Below, in pieces: positions 1 through 60,459 of a stretch of 64,000 bases of DNA. The stretch is taken from NCBI GenBank assembly GCA_021818615.1, contig JAKATT010000136.1:37981-101980 (forward strand). Direction: 5' to 3'. Made by a program: the position numbers and the translations under genes. Under the pieces are notes generated by a model that ran no database searches, was not told where the DNA came from, and worked only from the letters and a program-made list of their open reading frames with translations. Each line of letters starts with the position of its first letter. Position 1 is the stretch's first letter. Source of the DNA: Actinomycetes bacterium. GTDB taxonomy: Bacteria > Actinomycetota > Acidimicrobiia > Acidimicrobiales > Bog-793.

Positions 1-648
1 GTAGAGGGTGAGAACCGTCCGCTCACGGTCGCCGAGCGAGGAGATCGCCCGAGCGAGGAGCCGGCGAGTCTCGTTCTTCTCCACTACTGCCACCGGGCCG
101 TCACCGGTGTCTGCCAAGGTGTCGCCCAGAGTGCTCGGACCCTGCTGGCCGAAGAGCATCTCATCGAGCTGGAGGATGCCGGCCCTTGTCGTTTGGCGCA
201 GCAACGAGTCGAGCTCCTGGGGCGTGAGACCGAGCTCGGTGGCGAGCTCCTCGTCTGTGGGCGAGCGCCGCAGCTTGTGCTCGAGCTTGTTGTAAGCCTG
301 GTCGGCCGCCCTCGCCTTGGCTCGAACCGAGCGCGGCACCCAGTCGATCGACCTCAACTCGTCGAGGATGGCGCCTCGGATGCGCGGCACGGCATAGGTC
401 TCGAACTTGACACCCCGCTCCGGGTCGTACTTCTCGATCGCGTCGATCAACCCGAGGATTCCGTAGCTCACCAGGTCGGCCTGATCGACCGAGTCCGGCA
501 GGCGTGACATGACCCGCCCGGCCACGAATTTGACGAGCGGCGAGTAGTGCAGGATCAGGCGGTCGCGGGCCGACCGGTCCGGCGCGAGCCGGTAGTCGCC
601 CCACAGCTCCCCGACCGTCTCTATGCGCTGGACCTCGATCGCCATCAT
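1..648 (-). CDS. FliA/WhiG-type (sigma-28 family) sigma factor, C-terminus beyond window edge
   Basis: Absent from ORF track (runs off edge). Reverse translation from ATG 646-648: MMAIEVQRIETVGELWGDY..LILHYSPLVKFVAGRV..GILGLIDAIEKYDPERGVKFETYAVPRIRGAILDELRSIDWVPRSVR..RERTVLTLY. This covers sigma-70 regions 2, 3 and the start of 4. ATGA overlap with xerC stop. Confidence 0.8.
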   Translation of the reverse strand, partial: MMAIEVQRIETVGELWGDYRLAPDRSARDRLILHYSPLVKFVAGRVMSRLPDSVDQADLVSYGILGLIDAIEKYDPERGVKFETYAVPRIRGAILDELRSIDWVPRSVRAKARAADQAYNKLEHKLRRSPTDEELATELGLTPQELDSLLRQTTRAGILQLDEMLFGQQGPSTLGDTLADTGDGPVAVVEKNETRRLLARAISSLGDRERTVLTLY

Positions 649-1592
649 GCCCTCGGGTGGGCGTTGCGGTAGGCACCGACGAGGCGTTCGGTGGAGACGT
701 GAGTGTAGACCTCGGTGGTACGCAGGCTCGAGTGACCGAGCAGCTCCTGTACGACGCGGAGGTCGGCTCCCCCATCCAGCAGGTGCGTGGCGTAGGTGTG
801 CCGAATGGCGTGGGGATGGGTCGGCACGGGCGATCGGCGGTCGAGCACGCGCCGGACGTCGCGGGGAGTCATACGATTCCGTCGGGCGTTCACGAACAAC
901 GCGTCCATCGGCTCGGAGCCGTCCGAGAGCAGGCGCCGGGCCTGCCCGAGATAGGCGGCCACGGCATCGGCAGCCGGCTCGGAGATGGGCACGCGTCGCT
1001 GCTTCGAGCCTTTGCCCCAAACGGTGACGCTCAAGGATGGGAGGTCGACATCGCCGACATCGAGGCTGCAGAGCTCGCCGACTCGAAGCCCACTGCCGTA
1101 GAGCAGCTCAAGGACGGCATCGTCCCGCATTCGTATGGCAGGCTCCTGCTCCTCCAGGCAAGCTCGGCCTCCTTCGAGCAGCATCTCCATCTCCGAGGAG
1201 GACAGCACCCGCGGCAGGCGGGCGTCACCGGCAGGAGCAAAGAGGCGGCAGGCCGGGTCGGCGTCGACGAAGCCTGAGCGCTTCAGCCACGCGAAGTACC
1301 TCCGCAGAGACGATGCCTTGCGAGCGATGCTCCGCTTGGCGAAGCGGCGCGTGGTGAGGTGGGCGAGATAGCGCCGGAGCACCAGGCGATCGACCGCGGC
1401 AGGGTCGGTGACTCCCGCGCGCTCCAGCCAGTCGAGGAAGGCTGCGACGTCCCCCGCGTACGCGCCACGAGTTGCCGCCGACTCCCCGGCGAGCGAGCGC
1501 ACGAACCCCTCCAGTTCGAAGCCCACGCCGTAAACGGTACCTGAGCCAAGCGGCCACCCGCGACAGAGGTCTCCAAAGTGGCTCCGAGCCAT
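645..1592 (-). CDS. xerC: Tyrosine recombinase XerC/XerD family
   Basis: N-terminal SAM-like domain (AYAGDVAAFLDWL, LRRYLAHL); catalytic C-terminus HPHAIRHTYATHLLDGGADLRVVQELLGHSSLRTTEVYTHVS. Start placed at ATG 1592 (MARSHF) rather than the ORF maximum at 1643. XerC vs XerD not resolvable by eye. Confidence 0.85.
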   Translation of the reverse strand: MARSHFGDLCRGWPLGSGTVYGVGFELEGFVRSLAGESAATRGAYAGDVAAFLDWLERAGVTDPAAVDRLVLRRYLAHLTTRRFAKRSIARKASSLRRYFAWLKRSGFVDADPACRLFAPAGDARLPRVLSSSEMEMLLEGGRACLEEQEPAIRMRDDAVLELLYGSGLRVGELCSLDVGDVDLPSLSVTVWGKGSKQRRVPISEPAADAVAAYLGQARRLLSDGSEPMDALFVNARRNRMTPRDVRRVLDRRSPVPTHPHAIRHTYATHLLDGGADLRVVQELLGHSSLRTTEVYTHVSTERLVGAYRNAHPRA

Positions 1593-47418: not shown

Positions 47419-47588
47419 TGCGGATCCAATGCGCCGCGTGCGGCTGCATCGTCGACGGCGGCATCCGAGTCGCCGTGTGCGGCGACCCTCGATCTTGCTG
47501 CTCGGCCCTGCCCGTAGTCGAGGACCTCCCTCGATCCTCCACCGCCGACGCATCCGAAGAGCAGGACCGCTCCGCGCACCACACCTGA
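47418..47588 (+). CDS. 56-aa Cys-rich micro-ORF (not in track)
   Basis: ATG overlaps the upstream TGA by 1 nt (TGATG). MRIQCAACGCIVDGGIRVAVCGDPRSCCSALPVVEDL... has six Cys in the first 28 residues. No homology evidence available. Confidence 0.3.
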   Translation: MRIQCAACGCIVDGGIRVAVCGDPRSCCSALPVVEDLPRSSTADASEEQDRSAHHT

Positions 47589-47653
47589 AGACGCCAGCAC
47601 CTACGAATCGGAGAAACCCTTGCGCAGCCGGGACCGTTCCGGGTGCCGCTTTC

Positions 47654-48979
47654 TCAGATCCGCGCCAGGGTCAGGGGCACCATGACCAGGCCGAAGCCGA
47701 CGACGCCGAGGCACAGAGCCGTGGCGGTGACACGACGGGCGCCGTGCATCCGGTGCTCCTCGGCGAGGGCCCGCCTCTCCAGCGCCAGCAGGAACCCCAG
47801 CACGATTGGCAGCAGGAGGGCGTTCATGACCATGACGTCCGTGACCAAGCCGACGAGGTCGACGCTCAGGAGCACCATGACTGCACCGGCGACGTGCGCT
47901 GCGCTGTATGCGATGTAGAACTTCGCCGTCTTGGCGCTGGGCTTCTCGTTGAGCGTGTGGGTCCAGCCCGAGACCTCTGCGAGCCCGAAGGCGCCCGCGA
48001 GGGAGGCGACCAAGGCGGCCACGAGAGCCGCACCGAGCATGGCGCCACCGAGGAGGATCCTCGCCCCGGCGACCCCGAGGAACGGCAGGAGCGCCGAGGA
48101 CATCTCTCCCACGGTCTCGAGGGAGGCGCCGGGATGATGCAAGCCGACCGTGGCAGCAAAGGTGACGACAGTGGCGATCATGACGAGCTGGGTCAGGACC
48201 GCCCCGGTGGCGGTGTCTCGTCGCGCGCTGCGGATATCTCGCGCCCCCAGCCCTTTGTCGATCACCGCACCCTGCTGGTAGAAGATCATCCACGGCATGA
48301 TCACGGCCCCGACGTTGGCGGCGAGCAGCTCCACGTACGAAGCGCGCTCGAGCGGCAGGTGACCCAAGCCTGCACCGAGGGACGGGAGGCTCGGGTGGGC
48401 GAGGATCATGGCCGGGATGAAGACCAGCTCCATCAGCCCGAGCACCACCCCGGCGCGCTCGGCCCGGCGATAGCTGCCAGTGAGGGCGATGCCGATGAGG
48501 AAGGCGGCGGCGAGCGGCACGGTGAGGACCCGGGAGACGCCGAAGAGCTCCCCGACGCCCGCCACGGCGGCGAGCTCGGTGAGGAGCGCTCCGACCGCCG
48601 ATGCGAAGAGCGTCGTCGCGGAGAGCCATGCCCAGCCCGGCCCGAAGCGCTCCCGGATCAGAGCGCCGTGGCCTTTGCCGGTGTGGATGCCGAGCCGGAC
48701 GGTCATCTCCTGGACGAAGTAGAGGACCGGGACGAGCACGAGCTGGGGTAGGAGCATTCGGTAGCCCCAGCGAGCTCCGGACTGAGCCGCCGTGATCAAG
48801 CTCCCGGCGTCCGTGTCGGCCAACATCACCAAGAGGCCCGGGCCCCACACGACCATGAGCCCTGCGAGCAGCAAGCGCCGTCTGCGGCGCGGCAACCCGG
48901 CGAGGGGACGGGGGAGTGTTTCGGTGGCTGCTGTCGGACCAACGACTCCGATACGGCCAGGCATGCGCCACCGCCCCAT
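47654..48979 (-). CDS. NRAMP-family metal transporter with non-canonical TM1 motif
   Basis: LLVMLADTDAGSLITAAQSGARWGY..YFVQEMTVRLG..AVIMPWMIFYQQ. Eleven or more hydrophobic segments. Begins 3 nt after the DUF3105 stop. Confidence 0.8.
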   Translation of the reverse strand: MGRWRMPGRIGVVGPTAATETLPRPLAGLPRRRRRLLLAGLMVVWGPGLLVMLADTDAGSLITAAQSGARWGYRMLLPQLVLVPVLYFVQEMTVRLGIHTGKGHGALIRERFGPGWAWLSATTLFASAVGALLTELAAVAGVGELFGVSRVLTVPLAAAFLIGIALTGSYRRAERAGVVLGLMELVFIPAMILAHPSLPSLGAGLGHLPLERASYVELLAANVGAVIMPWMIFYQQGAVIDKGLGARDIRSARRDTATGAVLTQLVMIATVVTFAATVGLHHPGASLETVGEMSSALLPFLGVAGARILLGGAMLGAALVAALVASLAGAFGLAEVSGWTHTLNEKPSAKTAKFYIAYSAAHVAGAVMVLLSVDLVGLVTDVMVMNALLLPIVLGFLLALERRALAEEHRMHGARRVTATALCLGVVGFGLVMVPLTLARI

Positions 48980-48982
48980 CCG

Positions 48983-49852
48983 CTACGGTTGAAGCGGGGT
49001 GCCGACGCCTCCTGCGCAAGGACCACCGAGCTCGGGCGTGTAGCGCTGGCTCGCCCGGAAGGTGTCGACGAACCGCTGCAGCCTTGGGTCGTTCGGCGAG
49101 TTGACCCGCAGCTGGAATCCCCACGAGGAGATGACGATTGGCGAGGCCAGACCGGGGAAGGGGCTCAGATCGACGTAGCGCGACCCGGAGTGGTCCACGA
49201 CGCTCTGTCGCGACTCGAAGGAACGCAACTCGGCTACTTCGGCGGGTGGAAGCGATGGTTGGTAGGTGATCCAGACGGCGCCGTGCTCGAGGTCATGGAC
49301 GGCACGCTCGTTCGGCACCGGGTTGTCGTAGACCCCGCAGTTCATCCACACCGCGTTGTGGTCGCCGCCGACCGGCGGGATGACGGCGTAGCTGACGGGA
49401 CCGGAGACGTGGGTGTGCCGAAGTGCGCGGACTGCGGGGCCATTGTGGCTGTCGGCCGGCCAGCCGGTGGTGTCATAGGCGACAACTCCCGGGATGCCCG
49501 AGGTGTTCGGCACTTCGAGCGCGGCCGGCTGCACGTCGGGAGTCCCGCCTCCAACTCCTGGCGGCATGGTCTCGTCGCCCGTCCGGGTCCCCGAACCGCC
49601 CGAGACAAGCAAGACCACGATCAGCACGAGCACGAGGATCGTGGCGACGGCGCCCCCACCCCACCAGGCGACGCGTCGGCGGCGCCTTCGCGCCTCCTCG
49701 GCGGCGCGCTGCCCGGCGAGCTCGGCCTGACGCCCGCGGCGGATCTGAGCCTTGGTCGGGCGGCGCGCAGTCGGCGGTGCCATGCGGCTGGAGCCCGGAC
49801 GGCGAGCGTGCGGCTCGCTGCGCTGCTTCGGAGTCGTCGCTTGTCGGCTCAT
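48983..49852 (-). CDS. DUF3105 domain membrane-anchored protein
   Basis: Basic N-terminus plus TM (GGAVATILVLVLIVVLLV), then YAVIPPVGGDHNAVW..AVHDLEHGAVWITYQP. An alternative duplicated start lies at 49882. Confidence 0.75.
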   Translation of the reverse strand: MSRQATTPKQRSEPHARRPGSSRMAPPTARRPTKAQIRRGRQAELAGQRAAEEARRRRRRVAWWGGGAVATILVLVLIVVLLVSGGSGTRTGDETMPPGVGGGTPDVQPAALEVPNTSGIPGVVAYDTTGWPADSHNGPAVRALRHTHVSGPVSYAVIPPVGGDHNAVWMNCGVYDNPVPNERAVHDLEHGAVWITYQPSLPPAEVAELRSFESRQSVVDHSGSRYVDLSPFPGLASPIVISSWGFQLRVNSPNDPRLQRFVDTFRASQRYTPELGGPCAGGVGTPLQP

Positions 49853-49896
49853 CTGTAACCTCTCAATCGCTTGTCGGCTCATCTGCGACCTCTCGC
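49837..49896. repeat. 30-bp tandem duplication (26/30 identical) spanning the TorD stop and the DUF3105 RBS/start
   Basis: TCGCTTGTCGGCTCATCTGTAACCTCTCAA / TCGCTTGTCGGCTCATCTGCGACCTCTCGC. Each copy carries GAGAGGT-N5-ATGAGCCGACAAGCG in gene sense. Confidence 0.85.
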
Positions 49897-50522
49897 GGGT
49901 TCTCCCTGCGGCGCAGGTCTGCCTCGACGAGCGACAGCGCGCAGGACACAAGGAGCCGCGGCATCTCGCCGGTGTGCTTTGCCTCCAGTGCCGCCGCCAG
50001 GCGCGGCAGCCACGCGACGAGATGGGCGAGCATCGCTTCGACCCGGCGGGCCCGTTCTGGACTGGCAGGACGACCGGAGGCCACCGCCACGAAGGCGAGC
50101 TCCACGCCGACATGGTCCGGCGCCTGGATGAGTGAGCCCCCCGGACCGCGCCGGCGCCGGTCCCACGAGAGCTCCTCTGCGTCGAGCAGCGCGAGGACAT
50201 CGAAGGTGGACCGACCCCAGAGCAGCCCGTCGTCGAGGTAGACGGAGGCATAGGACGGAACGTGCCGAGCGGGGACCGGCGGCCCGAAGCAGGCGATGTG
50301 GTCCGCCGCCGCCCGCGCCCGCTCGGTCGCGGTCGCGGCGGCGAGCTTCGTGATCGTGCTGATCCATACGTCGCGGTCCTCGCACACGCGGGCGGTGGCC
50401 TCGATGAGAGAGTCCAGCTCCGGCAGCGAGTCACGGCTCACGGCGGCGGGGCCGTCAAGAAAGGCGTGAGCCAACAGGTCATAGCTGGCGGTGAAGACGT
50501 CAATGGCCTGGGCAGTGAGCAT
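49863..50522 (-). CDS. TorD/DmsD/NarJ-family redox-enzyme maturation chaperone
   Basis: MLTAQAIDVFTASYDLLAHAFL..ACFGPPVP..SLIQAPDHVGVELAFV (E/QPxDH motif). GGAGAGGA upstream. Starts 3 nt after the catalytic gene stop. The upstream 291 codons of the ORF are rejected. Confidence 0.75.
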   Translation of the reverse strand: MLTAQAIDVFTASYDLLAHAFLDGPAAVSRDSLPELDSLIEATARVCEDRDVWISTITKLAAATATERARAAADHIACFGPPVPARHVPSYASVYLDDGLLWGRSTFDVLALLDAEELSWDRRRRGPGGSLIQAPDHVGVELAFVAVASGRPASPERARRVEAMLAHLVAWLPRLAAALEAKHTGEMPRLLVSCALSLVEADLRRRENPREVADEPTSD

Positions 50523-50524
50523 CG

Positions 50525-53500
50525 TCAAATCCTCTCCACGGCAACTCGCGTCTCGAAGTAGGCCTGGCCGCCGGTGACCGCGTCCATGCACCCGACCGTC
50601 CACCCGTCGGCACCGGCGAGGGAGGTGTCGAGCCGGATGACCGAGTTGAGCCGCACCGCAGTCCCCCGGGTGGCGTCGCCGCCGACCGCACTGCCGTCGA
50701 TCGTCGTGCTCGCAGCCCCGGATTGCCAGTGCCCGTAGCCGTGGGGGAAGGCGACGACGCCCGGTCGCACGCCGGGGAGCAGCCGCAGGCGGCCGACGGG
50801 TGCCCGCTCGCGGGGCAGCGTCGCGGAGTAGACACGCACGAGGTCTCCCGCTTCGAACCCGCGGCGGGCGGCGTCGCTCGGGCACATGTCGATGAACCCC
50901 TCCGGCATGAGCTCGGTGAGCCAGGGATCGACGATGCACTGGCTGTGGCTGAGGATCGTCGACTTGTGGGTGCTGAGCACGAAGGGGAAGCGCGAGGCGG
51001 GATCGAGCTGCTCGAAGCTCCTCCCTGCCAGGTCGGTCATCGGCGCGAAACGGGCGGTGCCGCAGAAGCGCTCGCCGCTGAGCGAGTTGCGGGTCGTCGC
51101 CACGTCGGGGTTGTAGAGCTGGCAGGGGAGCCCGCCCTGTCCGTAGCGGTAGGTCATCCACGCCGGGCCGGTGGCCGGGTTCGCTGGAAGCCTTACCGCC
51201 GACAGGAACGACGCCCGCACCTCGGCAGGGCTGATCTGGTTGGTGGCACGGGCGTAGTGCTCCAAGCCGGTGTCGAGCACGAGGTTCTGGACGATCCTGC
51301 CCAGGCGGGAACTGCTGCCCGTGCTCGGTAGGTACGCGACCTCGTAGTCCTCGAAGCGCCCGCCACGCGCCAGCACGTAGGCGACCTTCGGCCACTCGGA
51401 GCTTCTGATCGCGCGGCGGCGGGTGGCAATCAGCGGCGCGACTGCGGCAAGCTCGGCCCTGCTCGCGTTTGGGACGGGTCCCAGGTTGTGCAGAGCTCCG
51501 TCACGCCAGGCCTGGAACGTCGGGTCGTAGGCGACGTTGGCCACCATCTTCAGGTAGTAGTCCTCACGGGTGTCGAGGGAACCCCCCTCGGCGAAGGCGT
51601 GCTCGCCGAAGCCCGGCAGGCCGAGCGCTTTGGCGACGTCGATGAGGAACTGCTCCATGCACATCGGGTAGCCGCTGGCTGTGTGCCCGGTGAGGGGCTC
51701 GATCACGGGCTGGCGGACGCCCTGGGCCTTGGTCGGGACGACGGGCCAGACGCCCGGGAACTCCCACGACTCGAGGAAGGTCGTGTCCGGCACGACGTAG
51801 TCTGCGAAGACGGCAGTCTCCGACATCACGATGTCGGTGGCGATGAAAAGCGGCACCCTGTCGAGGTCGGTGATGAGCCGCTGGAAGGGGAGGGCGGGGT
51901 CGTCGCAGCCGCCGATCGCTGGCGCGCTCCAGGCCGGGTTGGCGGCATGTGACAGGACGATCTTCGCCCCGTACGGGTAGCCCTCGCGGATCCCGGCGAA
52001 CATCTCCGGCCACTGCCCGCCGCCGAAAGGGAACCAGGGCCGCCGCGCCGGGTAGGGATTGACGCCGGCCTTCACTTTGGCGGCGTACTCGCCGGAGGTC
52101 TCGTAAGCGACGCCGCTACGCGAGATCGGGACGCCGGCAGGGACGTTGGCGGGCTGGCCCGGCCAGGACCCGAGCGCGTACGGAGCCCCGGAGCTCCCTC
52201 CGGCGTAGTCCGCCGTCCCGCCGCCGACCACGTAACCGCCCATCCAATCGAGGCTGCCGACGAGGAAGTTGAGCGTCATGACAGCCCGGCAGGCGTAGAA
52301 GCCGTTCGTGTGCATGGCGGGACCGCGCCCGTAGTCGGCCACCGCCTGGCGGCCGTAGCTGGTGAACTCGGCCGCCAAAGTGGCGATCAGCTCCGGGGGG
52401 ACCCCCGCCTGGGTGGCGTACTGCTCGAGGCTGAGCGCGCGGGCCTCGCCGTAGAGGAGCTGGAACCCGGTAGCGCACCTGACGCCGTTAACCACGGTTG
52501 TGTTGGTGTCGAGCGCGCCGGCCGGCCAGAGCTCACCGGATCGTGCGCCGGTGGCGGGCACGGGCACCCTCGTCGAAGGGTCGATCACGACGCCCGCCTG
52601 CCCGGAGCCGGAGGCAAGCCCCATGGAGCTTCCACCGCCACCTCCCATCTTCTCTGGGGAGAGCCCCGCCTCGGCGGGCGTGAGGAACGATCCGTAGCGG
52701 GGATGCTGCGGGTCGGAGACGACGAGCCAGGTGGCATTGGTGAAGCTCGGCATGCCCGCCTTCGCCGCCGCCTCCTGGCTCGGGCACGACAGGTAGGCGG
52801 CGTCGTAGGCGGCCTGCTCGATGATCGAGCGGATCATCCCCATGGCGAGGGCGCCGTCGCCGCCCGGGCGGACGTAGACGCAGCGATCGGCGTACATCGA
52901 CGAGTTGTTCGCCCGGACGTCGACGACTACGAAACGTAGGGATCTGGAAGCAGACGCCTCGGCGACCTTGCGCCCGAGCGCCTGCATCGGGAACCCTCCC
53001 GTCGTAGGGTTCAGCCCGAAGAAGATCACGTACTGGGCGTTGGCGAGATCCGGCTTGAGCGGGTCCGTCATCCCGTCGAGCGAGAGCATCGTCGCCTTCA
53101 TGCGGGGGAGGTCGCAGACGGCGTCGGCCGCTTCGAGGTTGACCGTCCCGAACGAGGACGCGAAACGTGAGAGGAGATCCGTCTGGCCGTTCTCGGCCAT
53201 TCCGTAGAAGACGACGAGGCCGTTCGTCTCCGGGCCGAGACCTGGGTCGGCCGGGTCGATCGGCCGGTAGCGCCCGCGACCATGGTCGTAGAGACCGGCG
53301 AAGCCCTCGACCTGACGGCGCTCTTCCCCCGCCACCGCCGAGAAGAGCGTCCCGCCGGCGACGACCTCGTCGACGAGCTGCTCCCAAGAGACGGCCTCGA
53401 AACGCCCCGAGCCCCGCGGCCCGCTCCGCTTGAGGGGAAGGGTCAGCCGGTAGGGGTCGTAGACGGTCTGGCGGCCCGCTTGCCCCCGGTTGCAGAGCGA

Positions 53501-55081
53501 GTGCGGAGTCGCCCACACCGCCGCCGAGGCGGCAGGCGTGGCATACCGGGCGTGCGGCTCGGTGCTGGCGGGGTGGTAGGGATTCCCGTCCAACTTCTGA
53601 AGGACGCCCCCGAAGACCTCGGCGGCGAGGCCACAGTCGCTCCCGCACTGCTTGCAGACGCTGTAGATGGTGCTCACGCCGGTGAGGGTCGCCGGGCGGT
53701 CCGGGTAGACGAAGGTGCCCCTGCGATGGAAGAGGTCGCCCACCCATGGCGCCGCACCCCAGCTGGCGGCGGCAACGCCGCCGCTCACCATCCCGGTACG
53801 GGCGAGGAAAGCCCTGCGGCCAAAACGTGCCCGGCCGTCCGCCGCCGGCTCGAGGCGATGAGATGACGGAGCGGAAGGAGTGCCCACCGGTGCAGGCAAG
53901 AGCGTGCCGGCAGGCTCCGTGTCCCGAGCAGCCGCCTCGCGCCAGGGCAACAGCCAGGAGAAGAAGAGGAACAGCAAGACGGCGATGGCGAAGACCCCGA
54001 GCACCGTCTGGACGGAGTCGAAGCCGGTGAGCGGCACCGACATGTGGACGATGCTCGAGGAGACCTTCGACTCCATTTGCCCGCCGAGCACGACGTTGTA
54101 GCGCATCGCGTAGACCCCGACCACGACGCAGAGGGCGATGGCGGCTCCCCCGAGCACGGAACGCCTGACCGGCCGGACGAGGAATAGGAGCAGCGGCAGC
54201 ACGATCCCCACTCCGAGCTGGAGGCCGAGGTAGCTGAAGGCGTGCGGTCCGTGCAGGAAGACCGAGCTCACGCCCTCGCTCACCGGTCCCTGCGTGTAGG
54301 CGGAGACGCCACTCGTGACGAGGTCGACGACGTCCAAGAAGCCGTCGAGGGCGAGGAAGCCCACCAGCCAGAAAAGGAGCGTCCGGGTCAGCTCACGGTC
54401 GCACTGATCGCGGTAGAAGCGTCCCGTGAGCCCGTAGACGAGATACATGAAGGCCATCCCGGAGACGACCGCCGAGACGATGAAGAGCACGGGCATGAGC
54501 GCCGTCGACCAGATCGCCCGTGCCTTCACCGCCCCGAAGACGAAACCGATGTAGCCGTGGAACAAGAAGGCGAGCAGGATGCCGATCGCCGAGAGGCCGA
54601 CGAGCACCTTGGCGTCTCGCCGCTCGGCCCGCTCGCTCAGGTCGCTGCTCCCGAGAGCGAGCAGCGAGGAGAGCCGCGCCCGCCAACCGGTCCCGCCGGC
54701 GCGCATGACGTTCTTGCGCCGAAAGGCGAAGTAGGTCTCGACGGTCATGAGCACGACGTAGCTCAGCCAGATCAAGGTGAAATCGCCGAGCGGCGACCAA
54801 GGGATGTGCGGGCGGGTGAAGAGCTCGAAGGCGTTGACGGGTTGGCGGGCGTCGGCGAGCACGGTCACGGGGGCGGCGAGAAGGAGGGAGAAGCTGACGA
54901 TGAGGGCGAGAGGGGCGAGCCTTGCGAGGCGATGCACCTTGAAAACGTGGCTGAGCGAGGCGACAACGAACGAGCCGGCGACGAGGCCGGAGATGAACGG
55001 GTAGGTGGCGATGAGCAGTCCCCAGTAGACGTTCTCGAGGGCACCTCCTCGAAGGCCCGGGTCGAGCGCGAGCATTCTCAT
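50525..55081 (-). CDS. Fused NrfD-type membrane anchor + internal Tat motif + bis-MGD molybdopterin oxidoreductase catalytic subunit (TtrC-TtrA-like fusion), 1518 aa
   Basis: ATG 55081 (GGAGGGG upstream). Residues 1-380: nine hydrophobic segments of NrfD/PsrC type. Residues 421-447: GRRAFLARTGMVSGGVAAASWGAAPW. Then FS0 motif CKQCGSDC..C, GNPYHP, ALAMGMIRSI, and ~1090 residues to ..AVERI. No stop anywhere in the frame. Confidence 0.8.
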   Translation of the reverse strand: MRMLALDPGLRGGALENVYWGLLIATYPFISGLVAGSFVVASLSHVFKVHRLARLAPLALIVSFSLLLAAPVTVLADARQPVNAFELFTRPHIPWSPLGDFTLIWLSYVVLMTVETYFAFRRKNVMRAGGTGWRARLSSLLALGSSDLSERAERRDAKVLVGLSAIGILLAFLFHGYIGFVFGAVKARAIWSTALMPVLFIVSAVVSGMAFMYLVYGLTGRFYRDQCDRELTRTLLFWLVGFLALDGFLDVVDLVTSGVSAYTQGPVSEGVSSVFLHGPHAFSYLGLQLGVGIVLPLLLFLVRPVRRSVLGGAAIALCVVVGVYAMRYNVVLGGQMESKVSSSIVHMSVPLTGFDSVQTVLGVFAIAVLLFLFFSWLLPWREAAARDTEPAGTLLPAPVGTPSAPSSHRLEPAADGRARFGRRAFLARTGMVSGGVAAASWGAAPWVGDLFHRRGTFVYPDRPATLTGVSTIYSVCKQCGSDCGLAAEVFGGVLQKLDGNPYHPASTEPHARYATPAASAAVWATPHSLCNRGQAGRQTVYDPYRLTLPLKRSGPRGSGRFEAVSWEQLVDEVVAGGTLFSAVAGEERRQVEGFAGLYDHGRGRYRPIDPADPGLGPETNGLVVFYGMAENGQTDLLSRFASSFGTVNLEAADAVCDLPRMKATMLSLDGMTDPLKPDLANAQYVIFFGLNPTTGGFPMQALGRKVAEASASRSLRFVVVDVRANNSSMYADRCVYVRPGGDGALAMGMIRSIIEQAAYDAAYLSCPSQEAAAKAGMPSFTNATWLVVSDPQHPRYGSFLTPAEAGLSPEKMGGGGGSSMGLASGSGQAGVVIDPSTRVPVPATGARSGELWPAGALDTNTTVVNGVRCATGFQLLYGEARALSLEQYATQAGVPPELIATLAAEFTSYGRQAVADYGRGPAMHTNGFYACRAVMTLNFLVGSLDWMGGYVVGGGTADYAGGSSGAPYALGSWPGQPANVPAGVPISRSGVAYETSGEYAAKVKAGVNPYPARRPWFPFGGGQWPEMFAGIREGYPYGAKIVLSHAANPAWSAPAIGGCDDPALPFQRLITDLDRVPLFIATDIVMSETAVFADYVVPDTTFLESWEFPGVWPVVPTKAQGVRQPVIEPLTGHTASGYPMCMEQFLIDVAKALGLPGFGEHAFAEGGSLDTREDYYLKMVANVAYDPTFQAWRDGALHNLGPVPNASRAELAAVAPLIATRRRAIRSSEWPKVAYVLARGGRFEDYEVAYLPSTGSSSRLGRIVQNLVLDTGLEHYARATNQISPAEVRASFLSAVRLPANPATGPAWMTYRYGQGGLPCQLYNPDVATTRNSLSGERFCGTARFAPMTDLAGRSFEQLDPASRFPFVLSTHKSTILSHSQCIVDPWLTELMPEGFIDMCPSDAARRGFEAGDLVRVYSATLPRERAPVGRLRLLPGVRPGVVAFPHGYGHWQSGAASTTIDGSAVGGDATRGTAVRLNSVIRLDTSLAGADGWTVGCMDAVTGGQAYFETRVAVERI

Positions 55082-55086
55082 GTCGC

Positions 55087-56157
55087 TCACTCCCCTCCGA
55101 GGGGTGTCTGCAGGACCATCTGGCCGCTGAGCTCGGCGTACTGATCGGTGTTGGTGCCGACGGCGTAGGGGTAAACGGTGTCGAAGGCGGTGGCGGCGCT
55201 CACGAGCTCGCCGTTCAGGTTGATGTAGAAGATCTGCGGATCCGTCCCCTCCTCGGGAAGGAGCGTGATCGTCGGGTACTGGGCAAGGAGCTGGGAGGCG
55301 GCGCTCTGCGGGTCGTTGAGGTCGCCGAAGACCCGCGCCCTTCCGACGCACGAGGTGACGCAGGCAGGGAGGAGTCCCCGGTCGAGGCGTTGCACGCAGA
55401 AAGTGCACTTGTCCGCCGTCTCCTGCACGCTGTGGAAATATCGGGCGTCGTACGGGCAGGCCTGGATGCAGATCCCACAGCCGATGCACTTCGTGTAGTC
55501 GACAAGGACCGGGCCATCCCCGCGCTTGAAGGTGGCCTGCACCGGGCAAACGATGACGCAGGGCGGGTTGTCGCAGTGGTTGCAAAGTCGGGGGAGCGCC
55601 CACCGCTTCACCGTCGGCGTGAAGCGCCCGTCTTCGGTGACGATGGAGCCCGACGGATCCCGGACCATCGTGCCGAGCTCGACCACCTCCACCCAGGTGC
55701 GGTAGTTGCCCGGCGGCACGTTGTTCTCGCTCTTGCAGGCGACCACGCAGGCCTGGCAACCGATGCAGCGGCGCAGGTCGATGACCATCCCCCAGTGGTG
55801 CGATGCGGCGGACTCGTCGGGGAAGGCCTCGTAGTAGGCGGGCTGGTCGCGCGAGTTGAGGATGGTGGGCACCCAGGCGCCCGGCCGGCTCCAACCGTCT
55901 GGCCGGGCGTTCAGCTCGTCGACCGTCCAGCTCGCCCAGCGGGGCTTGAGCGCGAGCACCTTGGAGAGGGGAAGGCGGCCCTTCAGGCGGGTCGGAAGGA
56001 GCGCTGCGGCGGTCCGTCCGGCCCGCAAGCGGGTGACGACGCCCCCGGACGCGGCAGCGACCGTCATCCCGAGCGCAGCTGTGAGAGCCTGGCGGCGCGT
56101 GAACGCGACCCGCTCGCCGGTTGCTCGGGAGTCGTCCGGTCTCGATCTCGCCCCCAT
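55087..56157 (-). CDS. Tat-targeted 4Fe-4S ferredoxin subunit (TtrB/PsrB/NrfC-like)
   Basis: Tat signal FTRRQALTAALGMTVAAASGG. Cys clusters: CIGCQACVVACKSEN, CNHCDNPPCVIVCP, CIGCGICIQACPYDA, CTFCVQR..ACVTSC. About 90-residue insert between the signal and the first cluster. Confidence 0.9.
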   Translation of the reverse strand: MGARSRPDDSRATGERVAFTRRQALTAALGMTVAAASGGVVTRLRAGRTAAALLPTRLKGRLPLSKVLALKPRWASWTVDELNARPDGWSRPGAWVPTILNSRDQPAYYEAFPDESAASHHWGMVIDLRRCIGCQACVVACKSENNVPPGNYRTWVEVVELGTMVRDPSGSIVTEDGRFTPTVKRWALPRLCNHCDNPPCVIVCPVQATFKRGDGPVLVDYTKCIGCGICIQACPYDARYFHSVQETADKCTFCVQRLDRGLLPACVTSCVGRARVFGDLNDPQSAASQLLAQYPTITLLPEEGTDPQIFYINLNGELVSAATAFDTVYPYAVGTNTDQYAELSGQMVLQTPLGGE

Positions 56158-56238
56158 CGGCTCTCATGCTCCGCCGTCCCGGCAGTCCCCACATCGGCGA
56201 AGCCGCTTACATCGGCCGGTAATCCCGCCTAGGCGATC

Positions 56239-56250
56239 TCGCGTACGCGA
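56239..56250. promoter_or_regulatory. Perfect 12-bp palindrome TCGCGTACGCGA in the divergent ttrB-like / response-regulator intergenic region
   Basis: Read directly. The 140-bp divergent promoter region makes it a candidate dimeric regulator site. Confidence 0.3.
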
Positions 56251-56297
56251 CAGTGCGACGCCGTCGGCCCGGATGGCGATGCACAATGTGAGCAGCC

Positions 56298-56927
56298 ATG
56301 TCGCCCCGCCCGATCCGCGTCATTGTCGTCGACGACCACCAGGTCGTGCGGGAGGGGACACGGCGGATCCTCGAGGCGGCGGGTTTCGAAGTTGTCGCCG
56401 AGGCTGCCACGGCCGCCGAGGCCGTCACGGCGGTCGCCGCCGGTTCCCCTGACGTCGTCCTCGCCGACGTCAGGCTGCCGGGCATGACCGGCATCGATCT
56501 CACCGCCCTCTTGAAGGACAGGCATCCGGCGATCAAGGTGCTGATCCTCTCGTCGTACGCGAACCCGGCTTACGCTCGAGCGGCGCTCAAGGCGGGTGCT
56601 GCCGGCTATCTGGTCAAGACCGCCTCCGACGACGAGCTCGTGGGCGCCGTAAGGTCGGCGTCGCTCGGTACGGGGGTGCTCGACTCGGGCGTCTTGTCGG
56701 AGCTCATCTCGGAGACGGGCGGCGACTTCCAGATGCTCACGGGCCGGGAGCGCGACGTGGTCGAGCTCGTCGTCGCAGGGCTCCCGAACAAGGGGATCGC
56801 CGCCCGCCTCGAGGTGAGCCCGCGGACGGTCGATGCCCACCTTGCGCACCTGTTCACCAAGCTCTCCGTCTCGTCACGGGCCGAGCTCGTGGCGTGGGCA
56901 GCCCGCCATGGGATGTTGGGGGAGTGA
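56298..56927 (+). CDS. NarL/LuxR-family response regulator
   Basis: IRVIVVDDHQVVREG..DVVLADVRLPGMTG receiver domain. LuxR HTH: LTGRERDVVELVVAGLPNKGIAARLEVSPRTVDAHLAHLFTKL. Confidence 0.9.
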   Translation: MSPRPIRVIVVDDHQVVREGTRRILEAAGFEVVAEAATAAEAVTAVAAGSPDVVLADVRLPGMTGIDLTALLKDRHPAIKVLILSSYANPAYARAALKAGAAGYLVKTASDDELVGAVRSASLGTGVLDSGVLSELISETGGDFQMLTGRERDVVELVVAGLPNKGIAARLEVSPRTVDAHLAHLFTKLSVSSRAELVAWAARHGMLGE

Positions 56928-58288
56928 CCGGAAAGGTGCCCTCGGAGCGGCCCGGGAAGGGACTCGGCGCCTATCTGCCGCCGATCCACGACCGGCGCTT
57001 CTGGTTCACCCAAGGGCTGGTTCTCGTGGTGTCCATCGCCCATGCGGTCGTCCACATAGCGGTCGGCGGGTTGCCCGACGTGCTCGTCCTGATCCTGTAC
57101 ACGTTCCCGGTGATCTATGCGGCTCTCGAGTTCGGCTTCCGGGGCTCGGTCGCGACGACGGCGCTCATAGTGGTGCTCTCGCTGCCCTTCGTCATCCACG
57201 ACGCCCTGTCGGGCGTCGGCTCGGATTTCGTAGGGCACCTCGTCGAGCTCGCCATCCTCGTCGTGGTCGCTCCGGTCGTGGGGCGGGTGGTCGAATCGGA
57301 GCGAGCCGCCCGCCGGGCGCACGAGGTGGCGGAGATCCGGTACCGGGCGCTCTTCGAGGCGAGCGGCGTGCCAGCCCTTGTCCTCGACGAACAGGGATGT
57401 ATCCAGGAGGCCAACCCTGCCGCCGCATCGTTGCTGCAGGGCGAGCTGCAGGGCAGGCACCTGAGCCAGGTGCTCGGCATGGCGGCCGCGGACGCGATCC
57501 TCGGAGGCGACCCGCCGCAACGACTCGACGTCTCCTCGGGCCTGGCGTTGCGGCCCATAGTCTCGGCTGCCGTGGGCGAGGCGGGTGAGCGCCTCGCCCA
57601 GGTCCTGTTCCAGGACGTCACGGAGGAGACCGCCGGCAGCCGGAGGACTCGGGCCTTCGCCCTTGCCGTCCTCGTCGCCCAAGAAGACGAGCGCCGGCGT
57701 ATCGCTCAGGAGCTCCACGACGAAGCGTTACAGCTCGTGGTCGAGCTCCGTCGCCGCGTCGAGCGAGTCGTGCGGTCCAGCCCACCCGACTGCGCCGGAG
57801 GCGAAGAGCTGCTCGCGGCGCGTTCGCTCGCCGACGCCGTGATCGAGGAGCTCAGGACCGTCGCCGTCCGTCTCCGCCCGCCCGACCTCGCCGATCTCGG
57901 TCTCACAGCCTCACTCGAGCGGCTCGTTGCCGAGGCCCGCCGCCGGGGCACTCCGGCCGAGATCGAGGTCGAAGGCCGCGAGCCCGCCCTCCCGCCGGAC
58001 TTCGCTCTCTCGCTCTACCGGGTAGCCCAGGAGGCGCTCACGAATGCTGAGCACCACGCCCGGGCCCAGCACGTCGGCTTGCGGCTCGACTTCTCGGACT
58101 CGAGCGCTGTCCTTGTCGTCGAGGACGACGGGGTCGGGTTCGTGGTGGGCGATGCCGCGGCGAGCGAGGCGAACGCCCATCTGGGACTGCTCGGGATGCG
58201 CGAGCGGTTGCAGCTCGTTGGCGGGACCCTCGAGATCACCTCTGCGGTCGGCGAGGGAACGACCGTTGCCGCGGCCGTGCGCCTCTAG
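56894..58288 (+). CDS. Membrane sensor histidine kinase (HisKA_3/NarX-type) with PAS-like domain
   Basis: Four N-terminal hydrophobic segments; PAS-like YRALFEASGVPALVLDEQGCIQEANPAA; H-box EDERRRIAQELHDEALQ; HATPase VEDDGVGF..GLLGMRERL. GTG 56924 (GTGA with the regulator stop) is an alternative start. Confidence 0.85.
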   Translation: MGSPPWDVGGVTGKVPSERPGKGLGAYLPPIHDRRFWFTQGLVLVVSIAHAVVHIAVGGLPDVLVLILYTFPVIYAALEFGFRGSVATTALIVVLSLPFVIHDALSGVGSDFVGHLVELAILVVVAPVVGRVVESERAARRAHEVAEIRYRALFEASGVPALVLDEQGCIQEANPAAASLLQGELQGRHLSQVLGMAAADAILGGDPPQRLDVSSGLALRPIVSAAVGEAGERLAQVLFQDVTEETAGSRRTRAFALAVLVAQEDERRRIAQELHDEALQLVVELRRRVERVVRSSPPDCAGGEELLAARSLADAVIEELRTVAVRLRPPDLADLGLTASLERLVAEARRRGTPAEIEVEGREPALPPDFALSLYRVAQEALTNAEHHARAQHVGLRLDFSDSSAVLVVEDDGVGFVVGDAAASEANAHLGLLGMRERLQLVGGTLEITSAVGEGTTVAAAVRL

Positions 58289-58779: not shown

Positions 58780-60459
58780 ATGAATCGTACAGCGAACCAT
58801 ACCCCAGTCAGAGGACGGGCGGCCCGCCCCGGCGGCGAGTTCTTCGCCCGCCCGGCCGGGCCCAACCACCGTCGCTTCGAGGCCCTACGTGCGTACCTGT
58901 GGGAGGGGGCCAGCGGCGAGGAGGCCGCGGCGAGGGCCGGCTACTCGTTGGAGACGCTGCGATCGGTGGTGCGGGACTTCCGCGCCGGCAAGACCGGGTT
59001 CTTCATCGACCCGCGGCCCGGGCCGAGGCGTGCCCCGGCCAAGAACGCGGCGCGTGAGCGCATCATCGAGCTGCGCCGTGCCGGCCACTCGGCCACGGAG
59101 ATCTCCGAGGCGCTTCTCGGCACCTCGACCCCGCTCAACCGCACCGGGGTCGCCGAGGTGCTGGCCGAGGCCGGGTTCCCCCGCCTACCGGTACGACCGC
59201 CCGCCGAGCGTGGCGCCCCCTACCGCTACCACCCCCGCCGGGCCGCCCGCATTGTGTTCGGCGAGCTGGCGCCACGGGCCGAGACCAAGGTTGGCGGGCT
59301 GCTGGCCGTCGTCCCCGAGCTCGTCGCGCTCGACCTGCCCGGCCTCATCAGAGCCGCCGGCTACCCCGGCACATCGGTCATCCCGGCCACGAGCTACCTG
59401 CTGTCGCTGCTCGCCTTGAAGCTGGTCGGGGTCGCTCGGGTCTCCCACGTCGAGGACCTGGCCGCCGATGTCGGAGCCGGGCTGTTCGCCGGGCTGGTGG
59501 CCCTTCCCAAGGCCACCGCGCTCACCACCTACTCCTACCGGCTCGACCACTCCCACCAGGCCGCATTCCTCGCCGCGCTCGGCAAGGCGATGCTCGCAGC
59601 CGACCTCGTCTCGGACGCCTCCGGCGACCTCGACTTGGACTTCCGCGCCATCATGCACTGGGGCGAGGACGTGGTCCTGGAGAAGCACTACGTCCCCCGC
59701 CGCTCCCAGCGCACCCGCTCGGTGCTGAGCTTCTTCGCCCAAGACGGCGCCAGCCAGACCCTCGTGTATGCCAACGCCGACCTCACCAAGGACACCCAGG
59801 CCCGCGAGGTGCTCGTCTTCGCCGAGCTCGACGCCAAAGGCATCAACTTCCTCACCCTCCGCATGCGCTCACCGTCGCTCCTCCGCCACATCGCCTCCCT
59901 GCCCCCATCGGCGTGGCGGACCGTGGCTCTCGATCGCGACGGCAACTACCGCCGCCCGAAAGTCGTCGACGAACAAGTCAGCATCTCCGCCTACCCCGGC
60001 ACCGTGCGCCAGCTCGTCGTCACCGGCCTCGGTCGCGACGCCGCGACGGTCATCATCACCAACGACCGCGTCGCCACCGCCAAGCAGCTCATCGAGCGCT
60101 ACGCCCGGCGGATGAACATCGAGCAGCACTTGGCCGAATCGATCCGCTCGTTCCACCTCGACGCCCTAGCCGGCTCCGTGCCGCTCAACGTCGACCCAGA
60201 CGTCGCGCTATCGGTGCTCGCCGGCGCGGTGCGCGCGTCGTTGCGCCGCCGGCTCACCGGCTACCACCACGCCACCCCAGACACCCTCCAACGCCGGTTC
60301 CTGTCCACAGGAGGCCTCATCGTCGACAACGGTGACTCCGTCCTCGTCCAACTCAAACGGCGCACCTACTCCCCGGTGCTTCGCCAGGCCGACATCCCCG
60401 AGGTCGCAGTCCCCTGGTGGGGGGGACGCACCCTCCGCTTCGAATACGACCGGCGATAG
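58780..60459 (+). CDS. Putative transposase (family not assigned)
   Basis: N-terminal HTH-like (AAARAGYSLETLRSVVRDF, IIELRRAGHSATEISEAL); LDFRAIMHWGEDVVLEKHYVPRRSQRTRSV; IERYARRMNIEQHLAESI. Flanked by other IS debris. Intactness not verifiable by eye. Confidence 0.6.
   Translation: MNRTANHTPVRGRAARPGGEFFARPAGPNHRRFEALRAYLWEGASGEEAAARAGYSLETLRSVVRDFRAGKTGFFIDPRPGPRRAPAKNAARERIIELRRAGHSATEISEALLGTSTPLNRTGVAEVLAEAGFPRLPVRPPAERGAPYRYHPRRAARIVFGELAPRAETKVGGLLAVVPELVALDLPGLIRAAGYPGTSVIPATSYLLSLLALKLVGVARVSHVEDLAADVGAGLFAGLVALPKATALTTYSYRLDHSHQAAFLAALGKAMLAADLVSDASGDLDLDFRAIMHWGEDVVLEKHYVPRRSQRTRSVLSFFAQDGASQTLVYANADLTKDTQAREVLVFAELDAKGINFLTLRMRSPSLLRHIASLPPSAWRTVALDRDGNYRRPKVVDEQVSISAYPGTVRQLVVTGLGRDAATVIITNDRVATAKQLIERYARRMNIEQHLAESIRSFHLDALAGSVPLNVDPDVALSVLAGAVRASLRRRLTGYHHATPDTLQRRFLSTGGLIVDNGDSVLVQLKRRTYSPVLRQADIPEVAVPWWGGRTLRFEYDRR

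Follow-up and report, generated by a model that had tools for sequence, protein, structure and literature searches.

How could a membrane anchor whose helices would be inserted by Sec and a folded molybdopterin enzyme that would be exported by Tat be made as one polypeptide? This question is raised by the window (the whole stretch of 64,000 nucleotides analysed here), in which a single minus-strand ORF running from 55081 to 50525 (1518 aa, stop codon included in the span) joins a TtrC/NrfD anchor, a linker and a TtrA-like domain. In this gene pair, ttrC would encode the quinol-oxidising membrane anchor and ttrA the molybdopterin catalytic subunit. The reading that we favour, and consider fairly probable, is that a ttrBCA-type operon has lost its ttrC/ttrA junction, and that the single 1518-residue product would have its nine helices inserted by Sec and its folded domain exported by Tat.

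The fused gene and its neighbourhood

The fused ORF starts with an ATG at 55079-55081, 5 nt past the TGA of the ttrB-like gene and with GGAGGGGAG upstream, and ends with a stop codon at 50525-50527 (Table 1). A longer ORF in the ORF listing (1889 aa, from 56194) was rejected, as its upstream portion overlaps ttrB in another frame and is a spurious read-through of high-GC sequence. Pfam searches of the fused protein located NrfD at aa 16-336, Molybdop_Fe4S4 at 471-542, Molybdopterin at 617-1105 and Molydop_binding at 1368-1457. The catalytic domain contains an FS0 cysteine motif of the CxxCxxxC type, C476-x2-C479-x3-C483 (53633-53656).

Table 1. Features of the fused gene, its parts and its neighbours (positions in the window)
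Feature	Position	Strand	Evidence or remark
Fused ttrC-ttrA ORF	50525..55081	-	1518 aa; five further assemblies carry it in identical or nearly identical form
TtrC/NrfD-type membrane domain, aa 1-380, nine predicted transmembrane helices	53942..55081	-	Pfam PF03916, hydropathy, AF2, Foldseek
Ninth transmembrane helix (predicted), aa 357-380	53942..54013	-	Hydropathy and AF2; kept in all unfused relatives; PMC8076601
Predicted cytoplasmic linker, aa 381-418 (~40 residues), Pro/Ala-rich	53828..53941	-	AF2 pLDDT about 51
In-frame GTG (V399), proposed internal start, unsupported	53885..53887	-	Anti-SD duplex +1.9 kcal/mol; no promoter-like site
Internal twin-arginine motif RFGRRAFLARTG, aa 419-430, RR codons 53813-53818	53792..53827	-	Homologous to N-terminal Tat signals of unfused TtrA
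Tat h-region GMVSGGVAAASWGAAPWVG, aa 430-448, predicted tenth (Tat-inserted) transmembrane segment	53738..53794	-	Weak hydrophobicity; AF2 helix 420-452
H452-R453-R454, positive charges right behind the h-region	53720..53728	-	FHRRG conserved in all TtrA relatives; putative Sec-avoidance/hand-over role, by PMC5449189
TtrA-like Mo-bisPGD catalytic domain, ~1070 residues	50528..53719	-	Pfam PF04879, PF00384, PF01568
NarJ/TorD/DmsD-family maturation chaperone gene, immediately downstream of the fused gene	49863..50522	-	Pfam PF02613, 44 bits; position shared with relatives L001 and L002
ttrB-like gene for a ferredoxin subunit with four clusters, which carries an N-terminal twin-arginine signal of its own, FTRRQALTAALGMTVAAASGG	55087..56157	-	Pfam Fer4_11 and related domains; NCBIfam TtrB 247.3 bits, under the cutoff of 416
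Divergent two-component system: LuxR-type response regulator (56298-56927) and PAS/HisKA_3 kinase (56894-58288)	56298..58288	+	Pfam; syntenic in L001

The cluster resembles the Salmonella-type tetrathionate reductase TtrBCA, reportedly described by Hensel and co-workers in 1999 and reviewed in PMC8076601 and PMC12949373, in its B-C-A order, in the RR signals on the ferredoxin and catalytic subunits, in the nine-helix NrfD-type anchor (N-out/C-in, as predicted here), in the adjoining LuxR-type two-component system, in the presence of a NarJ/DmsD-type chaperone within the cluster and in the best NCBIfam match of the catalytic part, which is TtrA. It differs in that C and A are one polypeptide and in that the host is an actinobacterial MAG. 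The three features regarded as the Ttr signature (genes in ttrBCA order, a Tat leader on each of A and B, and a nine-helix C subunit; PMC12949373) were all found: B-C-A order on one strand, RR on both subunits (FTRRQALTAALG in the TtrB-like protein and FGRRAFLARTG in the TtrA-like domain) and nine predicted helices. The scores obtained were nevertheless far under the NCBIfam equivalog cutoffs (TtrA 589.7 versus 1750, TtrB 247.3 versus 416 and TtrC 21.5 versus 314), and therefore the operon can only be called Ttr-like, with tetrathionate no more than a possible substrate. Ttr-like enzymes have also been reported for arsenate reduction or thiosulfate disproportionation (PMC12949373).

Origin and age of the fusion

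The ttrC-ttrA fusion is real and reproducible across datasets. The same 4557-nt gene, 100% identical, is present in ENA ERZ27237336, NCBI GCA_028063625.1 (MDA8040223.1) and Logan DRR872538 and SRR13205817, and a second haplotype (ERZ27237364; 99.9% identity) differs by 5 SNPs, 4 of them synonymous and 1 causing the change A438V, which falls within the h-region. The GC-rich, low-complexity nature of the region and the metagenomic origin of the data might suggest a sequencing or assembly artefact, the probability of which we regard as negligible, given that the junction is identical across runs and pipelines (MEGAHIT-style ENA contigs, NCBI MAG JAPTXY010000311 and the unitigs of both Logan runs) and occurs in the second haplotype too. 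Moreover, the linker contains neither a stop nor an ATG in any frame, which means that split genes could not be brought back by correcting one base.

Comparison with related loci revealed that ttrC and ttrA are separate wherever the junction was readable (20/20 loci, 40-83% identity), and that all 22 closest TtrA relatives of the window are unfused; the catalytic domain is 81% identical to that of one of the unfused proteins, P0002. Judged from these alignments, the fusion is young and lineage-specific. As it is confined to one near-clonal lineage, conservation is no argument yet for a function of the fused form. Both halves are under long-term purifying selection, with dN/dS values against L001 of 0.21 and 0.23 (0.23 for the catalytic domain). 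The SD-ATG(A) junction used by the relatives is missing from the window, as seen in the alignment with L001 and L002, and the linker is best explained, on the same alignment, as a product of the C-terminal tail of TtrC, which is variable, and of what used to be the intergenic/SD-start region. The exact mutation could not be reconstructed, as the GC-rich junction is broken by numerous small gaps when aligned with these two loci and the alignment is ambiguous. A stretch in another frame may be left over from the former TtrC C-terminus (ISSPRAGGGRP versus ISASAEGGRP followed by a stop), but it was too short to be trusted.

A recent origin would also suit a neutral-to-deleterious lesion, i.e. an operon becoming a pseudogene, whose fused protein never forms part of an active enzyme. 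Such an outcome, which we consider unlikely, would agree with the occurrence in one near-clonal lineage only (every relative at 40-83% identity is split), with the several small indels that separate the junction from that of L001 in place of a single clean event, and with the loss of SD-ATGA translational coupling. It is opposed by the integrity of the 1518-codon frame and of the flanking ttrB and chaperone genes, by the differences between the haplotypes (4 synonymous and 1 conservative change, with zero disruptions) and by the recurrence of the strain, unchanged, in several datasets. Furthermore, the predicted topology of the fusion is compatible, and the same architecture is stably kept in an independent 35-cluster family (see below).

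Anchor topology and the internal twin-arginine signal

Nine hydropathy peaks lie ahead of the RR motif, and the AF2 model contains anchor helices at residues 22-46, 56-76, 98-120, 150-184, 196-218, 226-263, 281-301, 309-335 and 357-377, as well as a tenth helix at 420-452 (pLDDT 74-84). The predicted cytoplasmic loops hold 28 K+R residues versus 8 in the periplasmic loops, in line with the positive-inside pattern. The PF03916 score of the anchor was 107.6 bits (gathering score 25.8), and its NrfD fold was confirmed by Foldseek, with matches to ActC (6btm_C, E=1.9e-8) and PsrC (2vpw_C, E=7e-4), although PDB chains searched with the anchor sequence gave no match. The anchor is thereby predicted to comprise nine helices, with its N-terminus outside and with the linker and the RR motif in the cytoplasm.

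According to the original prediction, the ninth hydrophobic segment (VLGVFAIAVLLFLFFSWLLPW, aa 360-380) returns the chain to the cytoplasm and presents the RR motif on the Tat-accessible side. The hydropathy, K+R and AF2 predictions all agree with this, and the helix count ahead of the RR motif came out odd (nine), not even. The helix is present and would place the motif in the cytoplasm, but it is not specific to the fusion, being conserved in 20/20 related loci, all of which keep TM9 together with a tail of 13-60 residues. A nine-helix TtrC with its N-terminus on the P-side and its C-terminus on the N-side is, indeed, a published hallmark (PMC8076601). On this comparison, the compatible geometry is inherited, with the ninth helix ancestral to TtrC and not an adaptation to the fusion. 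Given the ttrBCA gene order and the nine-helix C-in topology, loss of the stop/start junction would therefore yield a topologically compatible fusion.

The RR motif RFGRRAFLARTG (aa 419-430) and the h-region GMVSGGVAAASWGAAPWVG (aa 430-448) do lie inside the fused ORF, as had been proposed. The motif is not there by chance, because it aligns as the homologue of the N-terminal Tat signals that all unfused TtrA relatives carry at this position (e.g. MTVGDHGRFSRRAFLARTA in P0002). The h-region remains under the hydropathy peak threshold, and its summed Hessa value was about +6.0 (best 17-mer), versus -4.0 for a 19-residue window of TM9 and -4.0 to +4.2 for the windows of TM1-9, these figures being a position-independent sum on a proxy scale and not the output of a full delta-G predictor. 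The sequence features of dual Sec/Tat proteins were found together: an internal RR before the last segment, low hydrophobicity of that segment with HRR at 452-454 behind it, and a C-terminal cofactor domain. According to the rule that Tooke et al. (2017; PMC5449189) derived experimentally for Sec-then-Tat insertion, the last transmembrane segment is weakly hydrophobic and has positive charges behind it; by analogy, the geometry anticipated for this locus would fit that mechanism.

In the biogenesis that we propose, helices 1-9 would be inserted co-translationally by SRP/Sec, which would then reject the weakly hydrophobic tenth segment with its HRR. The TtrA domain (~118 kDa, as estimated from ~1070 residues) would fold while tethered in the cytoplasm and gain its [4Fe-4S] cluster and Mo-bisPGD there, with the neighbouring NarJ/DmsD-type chaperone probably acting on the now-internal RR peptide. 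The Tat translocase would subsequently export the folded domain, the h-region staying behind as a tenth transmembrane helix, and TtrB would be exported via its own RR signal.

Two other routes would make the fusion less consequential. The catalytic subunit might be produced separately by internal initiation (GTG 53887/TTG 53899) and so carry its Tat signal at the N-terminus in the conventional way; the fusion made by read-through would then be a by-product. The GTG (V399) had been suggested as such a start; it is indeed in frame, has no SD and has no stop upstream in its frame, and together with the TTG (L395) it lies 23 and 27 codons, respectively, upstream of RR. Weak or absent SD sequences are tolerated in Actinobacteria, yet this route appears very unlikely. 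The anti-SD duplex of the GTG is +1.9 kcal/mol, versus -10.0 for the ATG of the fused gene and -12.3 (L001) and -8.6 for the ttrA starts of relatives, and that of the TTG is -5.8, with its GGAG 15 nt away; neither codon stands out from the 87 start-like codons that lie in frame inside the fused ORF (median -2.7, 10th percentile -6.7). In relatives, ttrA begins 10-17 residues before RR with a strong SD, an element that is gone here, and no promoter-like site was found near the GTG, which is thus left without a ribosome-binding site, a promoter-like site or comparative support. None of the three frames has a stop codon from TM9 to the RR motif, and ribosomes arriving from ttrC would cover the site; as the upstream frame has no stop, internal initiation would not prevent synthesis of the full-length fusion either.

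The other route is export as a fusion followed by a signal peptidase cut behind the h-region, so that the mature enzyme would be a normal TtrABC of three subunits, with the fusion playing a part in biogenesis only. Tat signals of many molybdoenzymes are cleaved, and the h-region and the stretch behind it do contain small residues (VAAAS, WGAAP). Nevertheless, the AAA/S site falls midway along the h-region and the GAA/P site has Pro at +1, which blocks signal peptidase I, while the stretch behind the h-region, SPW[VI]GDVFHRRG, is strongly conserved, as expected of mature structure. The signal of Salmonella TtrA, moreover, is reported in PMC5449189, with reference to James et al. 2013, as an uncleaved membrane anchor, and we judge cleavage at this locus improbable. 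If the signal is uncleaved here as in Salmonella, the sole new element of the fused protein would be the ~40-residue cytoplasmic loop joining two helices of the same complex, which would account for the tolerance of the fusion.

Other fused NrfD proteins and dual Sec/Tat insertion

The same architecture was found in at least three distant TtrA-like groups, two of them with an RR motif. One of these, the P0033 family, consists of 35 clusters (34 full-length, 1398-1461 aa) from MAGs of several phyla, and is fused throughout (35/35), with RR in 34 clusters and RGR in the remaining one. The segment behind its motif is weakly hydrophobic (median +2.8 versus -1.85 for TM9) and is followed by 1-4 K/R residues; when 33 fused proteins of the family were aligned with the window protein, R422 was invariant and R423 at least 90% conserved. 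Domain order, nine hydropathy peaks before the aligned RR and TtrA as the best NCBIfam match are common to both, whereas identity to the window protein is about 30-36%, the P0033 linker is shorter (14-34 residues), its h-region is more hydrophobic and its partner is a 620-680-residue ferredoxin with its own internal RR signal. As the nearest relatives of the window protein (81%) are all unfused and identity to the P0033 family is low, the two fusions are independent; on these sequence relationships, the window protein is not a member of the family and shares its architecture by convergence. A profile search with four fused proteins gave no matches beyond those of the single-sequence search, and no described NrfD-molybdopterin or TtrC-TtrA fusion was found in literature searches, which lacked most subscription-journal papers.

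To our knowledge, only four protein families that combine Sec and Tat insertion have been described, all with small passengers and at most five helices. Among the polytopic metalloproteins of this kind are the actinobacterial Rieske protein Sco2149, the haem-MoCo protein Sco3746, the polyferredoxin Q1NSB0 and YkuE-like phosphoesterases (Keller et al. 2012, PMC3471235; Tooke et al. 2017, PMC5449189). The window protein resembles them in having Sec-type helices followed by a cytoplasmic loop, an internal RR right before a weakly hydrophobic last segment with basic residues behind it, and a C-terminal globular domain with a cofactor. Unlike them, it has nine helices before RR with the N-terminus outside, where the published N-out scan extended to 1, 3, 5 or 7 helices only, and its predicted ~1070-residue Mo-bisPGD/[4Fe-4S] passenger is several times larger than the known ones. 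A passenger so much larger than that of any proven dual Sec/Tat substrate weighs against the favoured reading. By analogy, the architecture fits the known dual Sec/Tat class as a previously undescribed form.

The NrfD fold is also shared with PsrC of Thermus thermophilus polysulfide reductase (PDB 2VPW/2VPZ) and ActC of alternative complex III (6BTM, 6F0K), which have eight and ten helices, respectively. The PsrC gene is, in addition, the last in psrABC; with this gene position and eight helices, an equivalent read-through fusion to PsrA is impossible, and for the same reasons fusions would recur in Ttr-like and not in Psr-type enzymes. Redox domains fused to NrfD-type anchors comprise Mo-bisPGD catalytic subunits and, in other proteins, TtrB-like ferredoxins. 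Whether NrfD anchors fused via an internal RR to large periplasmic redox domains form an unrecognised, widespread dual Sec/Tat class, with the window locus as a freshly arisen example in which the B-C-A order and the nine-helix C-in anchor let junction loss suffice, seems to us evenly balanced.

If this is true, no known class member would exceed the window protein in Sec-inserted helices (nine) or in the size of the Tat passenger (~118 kDa by the estimate above), and a 9+1-helix protein carrying a molybdoenzyme of this size would probe how far the hand-over mechanism scales. It would raise questions of tethered cofactor loading, of chaperone proofreading on an internal signal and of Tat transport of a domain anchored by nine helices, for which the split-gene relatives (81% identity) constitute a natural control pair. 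The P0033-family proteins are named 'NrfD/PsrC family molybdoenzyme membrane anchor subunit' at NCBI. Naming of this 'NrfD/PsrC membrane anchor' type (at JGI, some are 'tetrathionate reductase subunit A') keeps the catalytic domain out of sight when metabolism is reconstructed from MAGs.

The fused ttrC-ttrA gene and its unfused relatives

TtrC and TtrA have recently become fused at this locus, an NrfD-type membrane anchor and a molybdopterin catalytic subunit now being encoded by one gene. The twin-arginine (RR) motif, the hydrophobic segment following it (h-region), the ninth hydrophobic segment and the in-frame GTG were all found where the original prediction had placed them. The best-matching NCBIfam models were TtrA at 590 bits, TtrB at 247 bits and, with a weak score, TtrC; none reached its equivalog cutoff. 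A 1889-residue ORF from the ORF listing was rejected as a high-GC artefact, its upstream portion overlapping ttrB in a different frame.

Features of the fused gene and the adjoining ttrB-like gene (residues are those of the fused protein)
Feature	Window position	Residues	Strand	Remark
ttrB-like ferredoxin gene	55087-56157		minus	ends in TGA
Fused ORF, start ATG	55079-55081		minus	5 bases past ttrB TGA, after GGAGGGGAG
Fused ORF, stop	50525-50527		minus	1518 codons
NrfD (PF03916)		16-336		Pfam
Molybdop_Fe4S4		471-542		Pfam
Molybdopterin		617-1105		Pfam
Molydop_binding		1368-1457		Pfam
Ninth hydrophobic segment		357-380	minus	
In-frame GTG	53885-53887	V399	minus	
Twin-arginine motif RFGRRAFLARTG	53813-53818 (RR codons)	419-430	minus	
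h-region GMVSGGVAAASWGAAPWVG		430-448	minus	

In the first homology search the sole fused match was the query itself, the other 22 being unfused TtrA proteins of approximately 1100 residues (the closest 81% identical), and an artefact was therefore considered possible. A cluster look-up revealed a second 1518-residue member (NCBI MDA8040223.1, Actinomycetota MAG), and contig look-ups placed the fused gene also in ENA ERZ27237336 and ERZ27237364, NCBI GCA_028063625.1, and Logan DRR872538 and SRR13205817. Four of these five sources match the window at 100% identity, the stretch around the operon reaching 10.5 kb at most (window 47525-58081; L023-L026). The fifth carries a second haplotype, whose gene differs at 5 sites (4 synonymous changes, and A438V in the h-region). 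The full identity across four datasets with unrelated prefixes (ERZ, GCA, DRR and SRR) indicates a strain that is nearly clonal and has been sampled widely. Moreover, the linker, scanned in all frames, contains neither a stop nor an ATG, so the two genes cannot be restored by any single-base error. In the public annotation of one of these assemblies (L024, NCBI JAPTXY010000311.1), the ttrB start is placed internally (233 aa), the Tat signal being lost, and the 1518-residue protein is labelled only 'polysulfide reductase NrfD'.

The comparison set consisted of 21 related loci (anchor identity 83% down to 40%), mostly from Actinomycetota MAGs, with a few from Campylobacterota/Desulfurella, one from Bacillota and some unclassified. 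In 20 of 20 loci with a readable junction ttrC is closed by a stop codon, and in the relatives ttrA starts 0-60 nt past ttrC, either overlapping it as ATGA or after an GGAAGGAG-type Shine-Dalgarno (SD) sequence. Their TtrC tail after the ninth helix is variable (13-60 residues, acidic or proline-rich); in the window there is no SD-ATG(A) element and the tail runs directly into the TtrA signal. Synteny with the closest relative is otherwise kept (kinase, response regulator, ttrB, ttrC/A, NarJ-type chaperone, Nramp), and both halves have been under purifying selection since the split from it (dN/dS of 0.21 and 0.23). Together, the assemblies and the split relatives show that the fusion is real and of recent origin, and it is so far known only from one near-clonal lineage.

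Read on the minus strand in frame +2 with respect to the fused ORF, approximately 53835-53870 gives ISSPRAGGGRP, which is similar to the way the closest unfused TtrC ends (ISASAEGGRP, then stop); this may be what is left of a frameshift at the fusion's origin, too short and with too ambiguous a DNA alignment to rely on.

Anchor topology, Tat signal and internal start

Hydropathy analysis revealed nine peaks ahead of the RR motif (residues 22-40, 58-76, 101-120, 160-178, 194-212, 234-252, 284-302, 308-326 and 360-378; TM1-9). With the N-terminus outside, 28 K+R residues fall in predicted cytoplasmic loops versus 8 in periplasmic ones, the post-TM9 linker by itself holding 8. An AlphaFold2 model of residues 1-560 (input alignment with 33 distant fused homologues) has nine helices at the hydropathy-peak positions, followed by a linker modelled with low confidence and by a tenth helix spanning 420-452 (pLDDT 74-84); structurally it is similar to ActC of alternative complex III (E=1.9e-8) and to PsrC (E=7e-4). 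PsrC has eight helices according to the literature, and TtrC is described with nine, its N-terminus on the P-side and its C-terminus on the N-side (PMC8076601). The accepted Ttr signature combines a ttrBCA gene order with nine helices and with Tat leaders on A as well as B (PMC12949373). Since hydropathy, the positive-inside rule, the model and the literature agree, the argument that an odd number of helices puts the RR motif on the cytoplasmic side is right for the predicted topology. The ninth helix is indeed present ahead of the linker, but it is no adaptation to the fusion: found in TtrC of all 20 readable relatives (consensus LGVFxVAxLLFLxxxWLxPW), it is inherited from TtrC.

In dual Sec/Tat substrates, hand-over is due to a weakly hydrophobic last TM segment and trailing positive charges (Tooke et al. 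2017, PMC5449189). On the summed Hessa scale, the h-region scores approximately +6.0 (best 17-residue stretch) versus -4.0 to +4.2 for TM1-9 (19-residue windows); it lies under the hydropathy threshold applied to these helices and is trailed by H452-R453-R454. Both features are inherited from the ordinary TtrA signal, where they would serve Sec avoidance. Salmonella TtrA is cited as anchored through an uncleaved signal (PMC5449189); if this holds here, the fusion would only add a cytoplasmic loop joining two helices of one complex.

Based on the weak h-region, the HRR, the NarJ/TorD/DmsD-family chaperone gene directly downstream of the fused gene and the uncleaved-signal precedent, a Sec-then-Tat model is proposed, in which the nine helices would be inserted by Sec, the tethered catalytic domain would be loaded with cofactor in the cytoplasm, and Tat would export this domain, turning the h-region into helix ten. 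Beyond nine helices with the RR inside, we infer every step; at the level of prediction, these two features, the weak h-region and the HRR support the Sec-then-Tat geometry proposed originally. The fusion would be best filed with the known dual Sec/Tat class, its mechanism being an extension of the known one, and the natural split/fused pair and the unusually large passenger provide material for testing the hand-over model.

The same prediction had allowed for an internal start at the GTG. Anti-SD pairing over the 20 nt upstream gave +1.9 kcal/mol for this codon, versus -10.0 for the fused gene's ATG, -12.3 and -8.6 for the ttrA starts of the unfused relatives L001 and L002, and a median of -2.7 for the 87 in-frame start-like codons of the fused ORF; no promoter-like site was found near it. 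Nothing singles out this GTG from the other start-like codons, and the internal start is unsupported.

Similar architectures in other proteins

When 1.84 billion representatives were scanned exhaustively with HMMER (query: residues 1-620), six proteins aligned through the junction (P0033, P0039, P0053, P0074, P0081 and P0116). The P0033 family comprises 35 clusters (34 full-length, 1398-1461 residues), all with both domains, and its MAG labels are Planctomycetales, Trueperaceae, Acidimicrobiia, Microthrixaceae, Dermatophilaceae, Nitriliruptoraceae, Gemmatimonadota and Deltaproteobacteria. Each member has roughly nine hydropathy peaks ahead of the junction, then RR (34/35) or RGR (1/35). Next come 16-26 residues without charge, whose hydrophobicity is below that of TM9 (medians +2.8 vs -1.85), and past them 1-4 K/R residues. 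Across the joint alignment, R422 never varies and R423 is at least 90% conserved. Identity to the window protein is only approximately 30-36%, so the window fusion arose independently and converges on this widespread, uncharacterised family.

P0039 combines an RR motif with an additional N-terminal helix, which brings the count to ten and puts the N-terminus inside. The NrfD-MopB fusions P0053, P0081 and P0116 (the P0053 group) also have an additional N-terminal helix, and they keep the h-region behind a degenerate twin-arginine (ETRSAFLGK, ETRGDFLGK and TTRIDFVGK); either one arginine is enough, or a partner is needed for export, or the domain now belongs to another compartment. TtrA is the best NCBIfam match in the P0033, P0039 and P0053 groups, and the fused form has no curated model. 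A published bioinformatic screen of N-out dual substrates was limited to proteins with 1, 3, 5 or 7 helices ahead of the RR, and a literature search of incomplete coverage, in which absence is not proof, found no description of an NrfD-RR-molybdoenzyme architecture.

Another combination occurs in P0056, P0070 and P0153, in which an NrfD-type anchor and linker are followed by an RR signal (SRRNFLKTG, DRRAFLRAA and TRREFVRIF, respectively) and a TtrB/PsrB-like four-cluster ferredoxin, with no molybdopterin subunit; these are candidate dual Sec/Tat substrates. The upstream partner of the conserved fused family is a ferredoxin of 620-680 residues (L027:3130-5001, with a similar gene at L028:2943-4991). 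The L027 protein, the only one translated, contains cytoplasmic-type FeS domains, an internal RR signal PDRRSFIAGSAAATVGGVLGMIATG and a TtrB-like domain, a layout suggesting a membrane-spanning electron path.

In the window, the chaperone gene is followed by genes of a DUF3105 protein and an Nramp transporter (48983-49852, minus strand, and further downstream), the latter also being downstream in L001, the closest unfused relative. A 559-residue ORF lies past the two-component genes (58780-60459, plus strand).
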